Below are positions 4,775 to 9,036 of a stretch of 64,000 nt of DNA, piece by piece; the first letter of the stretch is position 1, and each line of letters starts with the position of its first letter. Origin of the DNA: Fimbriimonadia bacterium (GTDB lineage Bacteria; Armatimonadota; Fimbriimonadia; Fimbriimonadales; JABRVX01); assembly GCA_041483895.1 (NCBI GenBank), contig JBGPGO010000010.1:64001-128000 (forward strand), in the 5' to 3' direction. The notes beneath the pieces were generated by a model that saw nothing but the letters and a program-made list of their open reading frames with translations, was not told the origin of the DNA and searched no databases. The translations under genes were made by a program, and so were the position numbers.

Positions 4775-6003
4775 ACATACTCCAGTCGCTGCTCGTCGCC
4801 GTGGGGATGCTGCGGGCAAACAAAATTCGCTCGTTCCTCACCATGCTCGGCATCATCATCGGCGTCATGGCCGTCACCGTGACGATCGAGATGGTGGAAG
4901 GCTTCCGCAGCTACATGAACAACCAGTTCGCCAGCCTGGGTTCAAATACTGTTTTTGTTTTCTATGATCCGAGCGGCCGGCGGCGGGGAGAGACGTTGGG
5001 TGGAGTAGGCGGTCTCAAGCAAGAAGATGTGGAAGCGATCCGAGACGAATGCTCCCTTGTCAATCTGGTCAGTGAGGAACTTCGTCTTGGCGCAAAGACC
5101 GTCTCCTACGGGGACCTGCAGCTCGAGAGTACCGATGTCATCGGCGCCGATGGATCGTATGCCGAGATGCACGCGCTGCAGACCGACGAAGGCCGGTTTT
5201 TCACCGATACAAGCTCCGACAAATGGGCGAACAATGTTGTCCTCGGCTACGACGTTGCGCAAAAGCTTTTTCCGCGCGGCGGGGCGATTGGCAGCGACGT
5301 GATCATCGATGGCCGGGCATTGCGCGTGATCGGTACGATCAAGAAAAAGGGTCAGACGCTCGGCGAGCAGGAGGACAAACGGGTGTACGTGCCGGCCTCC
5401 ACCGCGCAAAAACGTTGGCTCGGATCGGACGACGTGCATGTTCTGTTGGCACGGCCGGTCTCAATGGCGGACACGGACGGCGCGATGGACCAAATGTGGC
5501 AGACGCTCATGCGCCGCCACGACAACAAGCAGGTGTTTCGCATCGGTTCACAAGAAGCGATGACCGCGGCGTTCGGCGGCATCATCACCGCTTTTGGGGC
5601 CGTCTTTTCCGCAATCGCAGCGCTGTCGCTTCTCGTCGGCGGAATTGGCATCATGAACATCATGCTCGTGTCCGTTACCGAGCGCACGCGAGAGATCGGT
5701 CTGCGCATGGCGGTCGGCGCGAAACGCTACGAGCTGCTCTTCCAGTTTCTCGTCGAGGCCGCCACGTTGTCGCTCATCGGCGGTCTCATCGGCATGGCTC
5801 TTGGTTGGGGATTGGGCGCGGCGGTCGATTGGTTCACTCATTCACCGATGGCGCAAGGCATGCCCGGCATCACGATGACTTTTCCGCTCTGGGCCGCGAT
5901 CGGGGCTTCGCTCTTCAGCGCATCCGTGGGCCTCGTCTTCGGCATCTATCCCGCCTGGCGCGCCGCCAAACTCGACCCCATCGAAGCCCTCCGCCACGAG
6001 TAA
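4771..6003 (+). CDS. ABC transporter permease, MacB/FtsX family
   Basis: RSFLTMLGIIIGV, SLLVGGIGIMNIMLVSVTERTREIGLRMAVGA, PAWRAAKLDPIEALRHE; GTGA overlap with the adaptor gene. Confidence 0.93.
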   Translation: MNILQSLLVAVGMLRANKIRSFLTMLGIIIGVMAVTVTIEMVEGFRSYMNNQFASLGSNTVFVFYDPSGRRRGETLGGVGGLKQEDVEAIRDECSLVNLVSEELRLGAKTVSYGDLQLESTDVIGADGSYAEMHALQTDEGRFFTDTSSDKWANNVVLGYDVAQKLFPRGGAIGSDVIIDGRALRVIGTIKKKGQTLGEQEDKRVYVPASTAQKRWLGSDDVHVLLARPVSMADTDGAMDQMWQTLMRRHDNKQVFRIGSQEAMTAAFGGIITAFGAVFSAIAALSLLVGGIGIMNIMLVSVTERTREIGLRMAVGAKRYELLFQFLVEAATLSLIGGLIGMALGWGLGAAVDWFTHSPMAQGMPGITMTFPLWAAIGASLFSASVGLVFGIYPAWRAAKLDPIEALRHE

Positions 6004-6105: not shown

Positions 6106-6873
6106 TCAATCACATGCCCAATACCACGTGCCGATGTTCGGGTCCGGGTGCGTCTCCCCGCTCGCATGTCCCGACGGCGACACGAGCGTCTTATCGAATG
6201 CCCCCGCAGACGTGATGAACTTCGCGTGACCATCCGCAAAGATCATGCTCCCGCCATTCCGGTGCCATTCGCGGAAGTAGTCGTCATATCCCGCGCACTC
6301 GTATCCATAGTAGCAACCCCCCTGCGGGTCCAGCGCCTTCGAGAAAAAGGGAAACTCCTCATCTCGAATGATCCGCGTCTGTGCAGGCAGTTGATACGCG
6401 GCATCCTTCACGATCTGCGTGGTGCCGTCCGGGTACACATTGCCATTTTGGCTGCTATAGTTTGCGATTGTTGAAAACCCGCAGTGATCGAATCGATAGC
6501 TCGATCCATAAGCTTCCCAATAGTTCCTGGATTTCGGCACGTCGCCCTCTTGAAACGGACTCCCGATATCTTCCGGACAATCAAAGACACGCTTGTCCTT
6601 CGTATATGTCAGTAGTGCCATCTCAATACCCAAATGCCCCGGTTCCCATGGACTCGGCGTTTTGTTATACGCCTGGAAAATCGGCCATGTCGCGTTGTTG
6701 TCATCCACGTACATGCGGACCGCCAAGCCGACCTGCCGCGCGTTGGAAACGCACGTCGTCACCTTCGCTTGCCGTCTTGCGTTCGCGAACACGGGAAACA
6801 GAATCGCGGCCAATATCGCGATGATCGCGATCACCACCAACAGCTCAATCAGCGTAAACGCTTTTCTATGCAC
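6106..6873 (-). CDS. Prepilin-type N-terminal cleavage/methylation protein with H-X9-DG motif (DUF1559-like)
   Basis: MHRKAFTLIELLVVIAIIAILAAILFPVFA, CVSNARQVGLA, C-terminal H-RNGGSMIFA-DG; SD GGAGGGGG upstream of the GTG. Confidence 0.92.
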   Translation of the reverse strand: MHRKAFTLIELLVVIAIIAILAAILFPVFANARRQAKVTTCVSNARQVGLAVRMYVDDNNATWPIFQAYNKTPSPWEPGHLGIEMALLTYTKDKRVFDCPEDIGSPFQEGDVPKSRNYWEAYGSSYRFDHCGFSTIANYSSQNGNVYPDGTTQIVKDAAYQLPAQTRIIRDEEFPFFSKALDPQGGCYYGYECAGYDDYFREWHRNGGSMIFADGHAKFITSAGAFDKTLVSPSGHASGETHPDPNIGTWYWACD

Positions 6874-6895
6874 TTTTTCGCCCCCTCCGATTTAT

Positions 6896-6997
6896 CCCTC
6901 CACGGTCACACTGCGGAGGGTCGTCGTTCGTCATCCCTTGACAATCGCACTGTCAAGGGCCGACGGCGTCTCCCTTCACAATCCCAATTGTGAAGGG
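6896..6997. repeat. Three palindromic REP-like repeats, family A (consensus CCCTTCACAG-TCGCA-CTGTGAAGGG)
   Basis: Hairpins at 6896-6920, 6935-6959 and 6972-6997; same family at 23166-23282. Confidence 0.85.
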
Positions 6998-7038
6998 GCG
7001 CAAGATGACTAGGGGACGGACAAGTACGGGGGGAGAAG

Positions 7039-7131
7039 TCTCTGCGTTCCCTCCGCCGGAATTATCCGTCTCAGGTTCAAGGGGTCTATGCGCTACCGCA
7101 ATCTCAGCCCTTTCGGGCTCCCCCAGCAGAA
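7039..7131 (-). promoter_or_regulatory. TPP (thi-box) riboswitch aptamer
   Basis: Minus strand TCTGCTGGGGGAGCCCGAAAGGGCTGAGATTGCGGTAGCGCATAGACCCCTTGAACCTGAGACGGATAATTCCGGCGGAGGGAACGCAGA contains the GCTGAGA, GACCC-TTGAACCTGA, GGnTAATnCC and GCGnAGGGA hallmarks; P1 is TCTGC/GCAGA. Confidence 0.92.
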
Positions 7132-7138
7132 CGCCTCA

Positions 7139-7147
7139 ATTCTACCA
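7139..7147 (-). promoter_or_regulatory. Extended -10 promoter driving the riboswitch leader
   Basis: Minus strand TGG-TAGAAT about 7 nt upstream of the aptamer. Confidence 0.6.
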
Positions 7148-7160
7148 CATCAAATAAGAA

Positions 7161-7276
7161 GCCCTCCTCTTTTTCCGAGCCGAAGGCGAGGAAAAGCGGC
7201 GGATGATGGCAAGTTGGAAAGCCCTCCCCTTTTTCCGAGCCAAAGGCGAGGAAAAGGGGGAGGGCTGGGTGGGGGT
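7161..7276. repeat. Tandem REP-like palindromes (family B related)
   Basis: Two near-identical CCCTCC(T/C)CTTTTTCCGAGCC(G/A)AAGGCGAGGAAAAG units; the second ends GGGGGAGGGCTGGGTGGGGG like family B. Confidence 0.7.
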
Positions 7277-7692
7277 CAAAGGCACTGTCGCGAACGAGGA
7301 TATCCCTCCTCCTTTCCAAGAAGCGGCCAGCGGGAGGTTGGAAACGACGGGCATCATTGGGCGACGGCGACATGGCCGCCTGGTAGGCTCTTGGAGGTAT
7401 TTGCAGGTATTTCCTTGGACCGAAGAATAGAAACCCGCTCGGCGAGAGTCTTCATTGATAAAAGCGTCCGCTGGGAATGAAGAACTCCTGGCCGAATCCG
7501 GAAATTTGCTGTATCATAGTAAGCGGACAGCCACATTGGAAGTTGTTGAAACGTGACAATGCAACTCTTCCCATCCATCGGGACATGGGAACAAGTACTC
7601 GGTAATTGGCGCGATCCGTTTCAGAGGTGTATGTTGACAATCGGGCGGATCGATCAACGTTGGTGCGCTGCGAGGAGAGAGGCGGTGCCAAA

Positions 7693-9036
7693 ATGAAGTC
7701 GCGACTGCTTTGCACGGAGATTGCAATTTGCTGTATCCAGGCATTTCAGATTCCACAATTAGCCACAGCCCAGCAATATACTCATCGCCGGATCGGCACC
7801 TACCGCGGGGTCGGGTTTGGCTATATAACTGACGACGGTGTACCGATTTACCTTGTCACCGAAGGGGATCCGAACGATCTTGGCGCACCCTATGATGTCT
7901 ATGTTGACGGCGTAAACTACACCGGCAGCGTATTCAATGGAGATCATTATTGCTATGGTCCGAAATTGCTGCGCAACGGCGACATCTACTGGACTGGAGG
8001 ACAAACTAGGATCGATGTTTACAAAAACAATGTAAACATTACCCAAACGTTGTATGGCAACGCCTATAATGTTTCAGAATACAGGGTGAATGAACGTGGC
8101 AATGTCGCGGTTCACCTCAGTCTGGATCATTCGTCCACACAGGACACATTCTTGGACGGGTTCAACATGTCGAAGGCCGCTCTTGGCAATGGCTTGCGGC
8201 AGACCCAGCTCCTCCATTTGACAGACGACGGAACTCTCTTTTGGCGCGGGACGGGGCCAAAAGATCAAGGAAATGATGACGTATTCAGGAATCTCCAGAA
8301 TACGGACGCCGATGCCTTGGGCGCCAATCGGGCTGCCTATCAATACTATGTGAATTCTAACGGACAGTACCTTTGGACCGGTTTGGGAGACAAGACAGGT
8401 GGCTGGAAGCATGTGTTCCTCGGCCAAGCAGACGTGACAAGAGCCTTGTTCGGCTCCACCGACCACAACGATTGGGCGGTAGCGCTCAGCGATACCGGCA
8501 GTGTTCTGATGGAGACCTTCGATGCCGAGTCGCGGACGCTTGGTATGTACAAGGATGGCGATCGGATCTCCGACGTGTTGGGAGTGGCCGGGGGCATTGA
8601 CATCATCGGCTACTTCGCCTCCGATGGTCGAGCGGTGTGGAGCGGAGGAGGCACTGCATTCGGGAAATTTACCGACGTGTTCGCGGATAGGGCTAATCTA
8701 TCAGCGGCACTACTCGGTGGGAACCGTCAAACTAGGCTGGACGGTGTGATCCCCAATGGAAATGTGCTTTGGCATGGATATGGCAACCTGAATCCGCATT
8801 TCGACTTATTTGTTGAACAGTTCAATCTCTCGGCCAGCGCCATAGGCGATGCGTCGCAGAGTTACTGGGCGCTAGGCGCTTCCGGCAACAAGAAGGGACA
8901 GATCATTTGGGGGGTTGCCAGGAATGGAATGGAAGAACTTTGGGTCAGCACGCCGGTGCCGGAACCGGGTGCAATTGCGGCTGCAGGGTTCGCCATCCTG
9001 GGCCTGATACTGCGGAGGCGTCAGCGGGCGAAGTAG
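7693..9036 (+). CDS. PEP-CTERM sorting-domain protein with about 45-50-aa internal repeats
   Basis: Signal peptide, repeated W-x-G...DVF...N-x-S...LG units, C-terminal STPVPEP, TM segment and RRRQRAK. Confidence 0.85.
   Translation: MKSRLLCTEIAICCIQAFQIPQLATAQQYTHRRIGTYRGVGFGYITDDGVPIYLVTEGDPNDLGAPYDVYVDGVNYTGSVFNGDHYCYGPKLLRNGDIYWTGGQTRIDVYKNNVNITQTLYGNAYNVSEYRVNERGNVAVHLSLDHSSTQDTFLDGFNMSKAALGNGLRQTQLLHLTDDGTLFWRGTGPKDQGNDDVFRNLQNTDADALGANRAAYQYYVNSNGQYLWTGLGDKTGGWKHVFLGQADVTRALFGSTDHNDWAVALSDTGSVLMETFDAESRTLGMYKDGDRISDVLGVAGGIDIIGYFASDGRAVWSGGGTAFGKFTDVFADRANLSAALLGGNRQTRLDGVIPNGNVLWHGYGNLNPHFDLFVEQFNLSASAIGDASQSYWALGASGNKKGQIIWGVARNGMEELWVSTPVPEPGAIAAAGFAILGLILRRRQRAK

Follow-up and report, generated by a model that had tools for sequence, protein, structure and literature searches.

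A TPP riboswitch ahead of an H-X9-DG prepilin gene points to an undescribed pilin-based step of vitamin uptake in Armatimonadota

Introduction

Substrate binding by pilins has a precedent in ComP, the ligand-binding minor pilin of DNA-uptake pili, and pilin-like genes have reportedly been described in mucin-utilisation loci of Akkermansia. A pilin-like export signal on solute-capturing proteins is known from the bindosome of Saccharolobus (Sulfolobus) solfataricus, in which the sugar-binding partners of ABC transporters carry a class III signal (PMC3047682; PMC13705601); within the main text of the latter paper, neither “thiamine” nor “vitamin” occurs. Genomes of Armatimonadota and Planctomycetes each encode dozens of proteins of the H-X9-DG/DUF1559 family. 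Their published label is solute-binding, which is untested, and the statements that apply this label are silent on ligand, regulator and pilin route (PMC2754498; PMC4807772); in another account the family is called unknown (PMC10632474). A search of the literature, with supplements, most subscription journals and regulon databases outside its scope, found no report of a riboswitch paired with a pilin or an H-X9-DG protein.

Here we describe such a pairing on contig JBGPGO010000010.1 of assembly GCA_041483895.1, a genome that is 95% complete. The window is the whole stretch of DNA that was analysed, i.e. the 64,000 nt at positions 64,001-128,000 of this contig, and coordinates without a locus label are positions within it. 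An earlier note, made from the letters of the window alone, had read a promoter, a TPP aptamer and a prepilin-type gene at this locus, and had suggested that the product captures thiamine or a precursor on a filament.

Results

The window contains one Rfam match, the aptamer of a TPP riboswitch, which is also the sole TPP match in the genome (Table 1). The match covers the full model (positions 1-105) and lies above the gathering cut-off, so that the aptamer is complete as had been claimed; the interval 7039-7131 given for it previously is the core from P1 to P1. Behind the aptamer lies a gene for a pilin-like protein, and the switch has no other target. Since the neighbouring gene, an ABC permease gene ending at 6003, is convergent, the transcription unit consists of one gene, and no thi gene was found among the eight neighbouring proteins scanned. 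Both the lone gene and the lack of a thi gene nearby had been noticed before and stand.

On the other side of the aptamer, an extended -10-like element predicts, by its letters, that transcription starts at about 7132-7135, i.e. at the foot of the aptamer. A promoter scan, which depends on a -35 box, did not have this element among its matches. A -10-like hexamer (TAnnnT) is similarly placed in 52 of 77 orthologous leaders, as compared with about 0.085 expected per search window from the background of this genome, which supports the promoter proposed in the earlier note. Just 5’ of the promoter there are two 41-nt direct repeats (7159-7199 and 7219-7259), which are 93% identical and lie each within a hairpin; arms related to them are present at a few other sites. 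The divergent gene at 7606-9036 encodes a 476-aa PEP-CTERM repeat-like protein, and a similar protein is encoded 3’ of the thiN-symporter locus that is described below (L131:11031-12389).

Table 1. Features of the TPP switch-pilin locus, in window coordinates.
Feature	Position	Strand	Basis
Prepilin/H-X9-DG (DUF1559-like) gene, GTG start, 255 aa, TPP-linked clade A	6106..6873	-	ORF and profile searches
H-X9-DG motif, H204 to D214-G215	6229..6264	-	Sequence
Class III (prepilin) signal with Phe+1 and Glu+5: short basic leader and hydrophobic helix, cleavage predicted ahead of Phe+1	6799..6873	-	PF07963, TIGR02532
Shine-Dalgarno (SD) region	6879..6888	-	Sequence and folding
REP-like palindrome, second leader copy	6935..6959	.	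Same repeat family
REP-like palindrome in loop of SD-sequestering stem	6972..6997	.	One of 81 copies genome-wide
Anti-SD segment of expression platform	7011..7022	-	Folding
TPP riboswitch aptamer RF00059	7030..7134	-	cmscan, 64.3 bits (gathering cut-off 54.3), E 2.6e-10
Aptamer P1 helix	7130-7126 with 7045-7041	-	
Aptamer J4-5/P5 strand, can pair with 7022-7015 in predicted ligand-free (ON) fold	7063..7070	-	Folding
Extended -10-like element TG-N-TAGAAT	7139..7147	-	Read from sequence

Folding of the leader predicts a translational OFF switch. Residues 7018-7011 of the anti-SD segment pair with 6886-6879 of the SD region at a probability of about 0.9 or more, and segment and partner are both kept in the leaders of two genomes from the sister genus (G001 and G002). 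When the SD was forced open, the anti-SD segment paired with the P5 strand of the aptamer in an 8-bp helix, and it did so in all three leaders of family f1, i.e. this one and both of the sister genus. Translational switching stays a model, because equilibrium folding favours a closed SD whether the aptamer is folded or not; the competing helices are present in 3/3 f1 leaders. Outside f1, terminator-like hairpins were detected in 32 of 56 leaders by a loose test, as compared with 3-11 in five shuffles.

Two strong hairpins in the leader were also considered as regulatory elements and were rejected, being copies of a genome-wide repeat. This family of REP-like palindromes (25-26 nt) has 81 sites, which are often paired, and occurs in both riboswitch leaders of the genome; both copies in the present leader lie within the loop of the stem that sequesters the SD, and the copy at 6972-6997 is missing from the leaders of the sister genus.

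The 255-aa protein scores well above the cut-offs of the prepilin profiles N_methyl PF07963 (33.4 bits, cut-off 21.2) and TIGR02532 (31.6 bits, cut-off 16.3). Its signal has the basic leader, the small residue at -1, Phe+1, Glu+5 and the hydrophobic helix of a class III signal, and neither F+1 nor E+5 varies among the 36 aligned members of clade A, the TPP-linked clade to which the protein belongs. Scores for DUF1559 (PF07596; 20.7 bits, cut-off 23.3) and for the H-X9-DG profile TIGR04294 (18.1 bits, cut-off 19) are both slightly too low. The PF07596 cut-off is exceeded by two members of the same clade in G002 (23.4 and 28.1 bits), and we therefore file the protein as DUF1559-like. As to the label of a prepilin H-X9-DG (DUF1559-like) protein given in the earlier note, the prepilin profiles and the literal motif uphold it, but both family cut-offs are narrowly missed. 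A motif scan of the genome found 48 prepilin-type ORFs, about 40 of which belong to the H-X9-DG family, and with the clade profile this gene reaches 280 bits as compared with 20 bits at most for the other paralogues. The paralogues include tandem arrays of eight (contig C14, 53622-62093) and of four (C9, 11498-15463); one copy in the C14 array is broken after about 100 codons.

An AlphaFold2 model (pLDDT 91.9) consists of a 51-residue N-terminal helix and a loop-rich head. With the full-length model, the top 15 rows of a VIA-align search were all type IV pilins or pseudopilins, the best at a modest Z of 5.1 (rmsd 4.7, 149 aligned residues), and Foldseek gave no match at E 0.001. The head alone matched none of 48,161 chains at Z 2 or above and nothing in Foldseek at E 0.001, which is not proof of a new or different fold. 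No periplasmic binding protein fold was among the matches listed in the full-length and head-only searches, a head profile had no match at E 1 in a PDB sequence search, no ABC binding-protein match was obtained by Pfam or PDB sequence search, and the ESM Atlas yielded only clusters that are unnamed or weakly labelled as DUF1559.

Fifteen head residues are invariant in 54/54 clade-A members (Y69, H80, G82, E84, D102, G104, P106, Y118, G123, S125, P163, R170, W203, G207 and D214), and the alignment of these members has many more aromatic columns. The His of the H-X9-DG motif is often substituted in the clade; the Trp preceding it, Trp203, is always kept. The known thiamine carriers ThiT and YkoE hold thiamine by an acid plus an aromatic cage. 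A complex prediction for the pilin and the symporter of this genome scored 0.01 (mark 0.32) with controls not folded, and is evidence neither way. Pilus genes do not adjoin the clade-A gene.

Within the order, we sampled 61 genomes and obtained 60 TPP matches in 56 of them. The downstream gene was read at 59 matches and assigned by coordinates in G036. An orthologue of clade A follows 38 of the 60 matches, thiC follows 17 and other genes follow 5, and at 3 of the 60 the gene lacks an evident role in thiamine metabolism. By a head-only profile (A2), 39 of the 61 genomes carry an orthologue, the 39th (G051) being interrupted by a contig end. In the phylum sample, which comprises 151 genomes and has 14 in common with the order sample, 22 candidates were scored per genome, and copies may therefore have been missed; 52 genomes yielded 54 copies that matched strongly (E of 3e-40 or below), not counting four matches that were weak or partial. 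Indeed, each of the 54 copies has a TPP match upstream on the same strand, at 217-409 nt from the start of the head, or at 933 and 1086 nt in case of second tandem copies. A protein scan returned 127 loci, and upstream TPP motifs are present at all of the best 80; 20 leaders from these 80 loci were submitted to Rfam and all passed the cut-off. Clade A is thus always TPP-linked in these samples and replaces thiC as the target of the switch. A significant Rfam match and a switch kept in orthologues are what the earlier note had said should be looked for, and both were found.

The genomes surveyed are kin, and the counts do not represent independent events. Close relatives of the protein come mostly from Armatimonadota, chiefly Fimbriimonadales, and four are from other lineages. 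In a library clustered at 50% identity, no more than 16 representatives reach an E of 1e-30, and clade A is therefore small and tight. It is present as one slowly changing copy per genome in lineages from hot springs, sediment, soil and reactors.

Carriers of the clade-A gene within the order lack ThiC (0/39) as well as ThiE (0/39), and ThiC is found in 3 of 52 carriers in the phylum sample, in one of them in two pieces, as compared with 82 of 99 non-carriers. G018 belongs to a family that otherwise carries the orthologue; it has none itself, and its TPP switch precedes thiC. Exceptions are G004, which is without thiC, thiE and orthologue, and G057, a genome of 65% completeness. The TPP switch of G004 precedes a 227-aa membrane protein without Pfam match (L032), possibly a further thiamine transporter. 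Twelve genomes of the phylum sample have a TPP switch and neither thiC nor an orthologue: the switch belongs to a second H-X9-DG clade (clade B, see below) in six, to a truncated thiC in one and to ordinary thi or permease genes in four, and one was not read.

The genome under study has no thiC, thiE, thiM or archaeal-type thiamine-phosphate synthase, no ThiL above the cut-off, and no match for ThiB (TIGR01254), PnuC, ThiT, YkoE or a TonB barrel. The thiamine receptors that the earlier note had proposed to look for, i.e. ThiB, ThiT and TonB receptors, are accordingly without a match. What it does encode is thiN adjacent to a sodium:solute symporter gene on another contig (C3, L131:7839-9895), lacking a riboswitch; this thiN/ThiV-like symporter pair sits behind an S1/P1 nuclease gene. 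It likewise encodes an A24 prepilin peptidase and three secretins, and ten matches to the T2SSE ATPase family are above the cut-off. With thiN and the symporter present and thiC, thiE, thiM, ThiB and TonB receptors all missing, the ligand is likely to be intact thiamine rather than HMP or HET. These two are also unlikely ligands because the ThiN-only genotype needs B1 itself, according to the scheme in PMC6593275. HMP and HET were thus discarded, there being no ThiE in any of the 39 order carriers and no ThiM in this genome. The proposal that the protein serves in uptake of thiamine or of HMP/HET therefore survives in its first half, with the conserved switch, the thiC-less carriers and the partner genes on its side, and finds no support in its second, for which ThiE, ThiM and the archaeal-type synthase are missing.

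Partner genes are found with the pilin-like gene itself in relatives. Downstream of it lie thiN and a sodium:solute symporter gene in G146, the symporter gene in G084 and thiN in G195. G001 and G002, of the sister genus, have two clade-A copies that flank a membrane protein of PF09819, the YkoE S-component family. The whole operon in G002 (L045) and G001 (L048) reads TPP switch, pilin, YkoE-type S-component, pilin, Amidohydro_3 enzyme; this last enzyme, which might act in salvage, has a counterpart of 54% identity on another contig of the present genome. The symporter occurs in 28 of the 61 order genomes, all 28 of which are carriers, and 11 of the 39 carriers are without it. No TonB barrel was matched in 30 of the 39 order carriers, and nine have one.

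Riboswitches were also found in front of other members of the H-X9-DG family. Clade B follows TPP switches in six thiC-less genomes (G112, G100, G074, G087, G124 and G110; L133-L138), and the symporter that accompanies clade A also lies behind the clade-B gene in three of them, directly in G100 and G112 and together with thiN in G110. By profile score, clade B is no nearer to clade A than are unrelated paralogues. Cobalamin switches were matched 55 times, in 52 of the 61 order genomes. Among the best 30 of these 55 loci (L068-L097, all from order relatives), 21 precede an H-X9-DG prepilin, 20 times of one clade (B12), eight precede a secreted protein resembling the PEP-CTERM-type protein behind the weak cobalamin switch of this genome (see below), and one has no downstream sequence. 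A quick tree of 72 rows, among them 17 of the 54 rows available for clade A and 10 of the 20 for B12, gave an SH-aLRT of 99 each for clades A, B and B12, and grouped A with B weakly (72); no member from this genome is in the B12 clade of that tree. A weak cobalamin switch of this genome (AdoCbl, 43.6 bits, cut-off 50; contig C24, minus strand, L132:909-2271) precedes a 317-aa PEP-CTERM-type protein and then a second secreted protein. Genus g10 has a further TPP switch, its second, in front of H-X9-DG-domain proteins which have several membrane helices and no prepilin motif (two of three genomes; L042:3658-5023, L043:3231-3878).

No FMN switch was found in the 61 order genomes, and no riboswitch was found in 34 stretches upstream of the other paralogues of this genome, with tandem followers and one copy at a contig edge left out; most of the family is therefore not riboswitch-controlled. 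The suggestion that the wider family comprises interchangeable solute-binding pilins gains support from the separate clade behind cobalamin switches, but the FMN search and the 34 paralogue leaders speak against a general rule.

Discussion

Taken together, the pairing of TPP switches with clade A gives strong support to a link between this clade and thiamine acquisition, and points to a pilin-based step of vitamin uptake that has not been described. We consider it probable that the clade-A protein binds thiamine or a phosphate of thiamine. Whether it does so as a thiamine-capturing minor subunit of a type IV filament working with a secretin is a more evenly balanced matter, to which we give an even chance. 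On this model, which we favour over the alternatives below, the cell, which cannot make thiamine, would import the intact vitamin. At low TPP, the P5 strand of the aptamer would capture the anti-SD segment and the gene would be translated; upon binding of TPP, the anti-SD segment would be freed to cover the ribosome site. Prepilin peptidase would trim the protein, which would become a minor subunit of a type IV filament, either a pilus or a periplasmic pseudopilus, and its clade-specific aromatic and acidic head residues would bind thiamine (or TMP/TPP). Cycling of the filament at the secretin might then do the work of a TonB receptor and carry the vitamin into the periplasm. From there, thiamine would be imported by the ThiV-like sodium symporter, in the sister genus by YkoE, and converted to TPP by ThiN. 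Against capture on a filament stand the head, which in sequence is unlike solved binding proteins, the modest pilin Z and the lack of adjoining pilus genes, and also the 11 of 39 carriers without symporter, the three thiC genomes that have the gene, G004 and the nine carriers with a TonB barrel.

The same thiamine binder could work without a filament, its pilin helix being an inner-membrane anchor of a periplasmic protein that concentrates thiamine for the symporter or YkoE. Co-transcription with inner-membrane importers rather than pilus genes would suit such an anchor, and so would the TPP-switched H-X9-DG-domain proteins on ordinary membrane helices in two of three g10 genomes. However, strict invariance of F+1 and E+5 (36/36) exceeds what an anchor needs, and passage through the outer membrane would be left unexplained where no TonB barrel match exists; we regard this alternative as unlikely.

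Alternatively, the protein might bind no vitamin at all, and be a minor pilin, induced by starvation, with which the cell attaches to neighbours that produce thiamine, or else an adaptor of a pseudopilus, picking out a scavenging protein for secretion. The only fold matches are indeed adhesive and secretion pilins, and restriction to auxotrophs would fit equally well. A single, slowly changing copy with many invariant head residues across diverse habitats is unlike a variable adhesin, though, and different vitamins go with different clades, which makes a role of this kind improbable.

We think it very improbable that the head is an envelope enzyme, e.g. a phosphatase that converts external TMP or TPP to thiamine for the symporter and ThiN. 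Judged by conservation, the invariant His80, Glu84, Asp102, Ser125 and Arg170 could be catalytic, and a genome with thiN and no ThiL above the cut-off can use free thiamine only; but no solved enzyme was matched by sequence, and the architecture shared with the cobalamin-linked clade suits binding better than one chemistry.

Finally, an orphan aptamer left by a deleted thi gene, lying beside a paralogue by chance, might seem imaginable in a genome with about 40 such paralogues and an order in which 3 of 60 TPP matches precede genes without evident thiamine role, but is refuted beyond reasonable doubt by the retention of the switch in 54/54 and 80/80 orthologues (best 80 of 127) and by the gap between 280 bits for this gene and at most 20 for other paralogues.

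A thiamine-capturing filament subunit would add a pilin-based component to thiamine uptake, and it could account for the vitamin supply of auxotrophic bacteria in which TonB receptors are few or missing. We put forward, tentatively and with more doubt than confidence, that the expanded H-X9-DG prepilin family consists of interchangeable small-molecule receptors on a shared type IV filament and secretin, which would make up a route of uptake across the outer membrane and replace TonB-dependent receptors in Armatimonadota and perhaps in PVC bacteria. If true, the thiamine clades and the cobalamin clade would be the first members of the family with assignable ligands. As the riboswitches provide two clades with a specific candidate ligand each, the function of the family can be addressed by one binding assay and one knockout.

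Among known systems, ThiB/TbpA shows no match to the clade-A system, either by HMM in the genome or by PDB sequence search. TPP-switched thiamine uptake in auxotrophs that have only ThiN/ThiL (phenotype “A”, needing B1) is alike in the switch, in the restriction to auxotrophs and in co-transcription with thiN, a ThiV-like symporter or YkoE; no pilin is among its listed components. With the DUF1559/SBP_bac_10 (PF07596) and TIGR04294 family, clade A shares the prepilin N-terminus, the H-X9-DG motif and the large set of paralogues, although it scores narrowly below both cut-offs and often has the motif His replaced. ComP resembles it in that a minor pilin would bind a substrate which the filament draws through a secretin, whereas that substrate is DNA rather than a small cofactor, and the resemblance does not go beyond the general pilin fold (5hz7 at Z 3.4). 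The bindosome, as portrayed in the accounts cited above, has in common with clade A a class III signal on the capture protein, genes encoded with transporters and not with filament machinery, regulation by substrate and many capture proteins per machine. It differs in handling sugars through ABC transporters in a single-membrane archaeon, whereas clade A belongs to a secretin-bearing bacterium and goes with a symporter or an ECF S-component, a vitamin and a riboswitch; moreover, the clade-A protein is modelled over its whole length as a pilin, the head of which is expanded. By analogy, then, the clade-A protein would work like a bindosome subunit without being a member of the bindosome.
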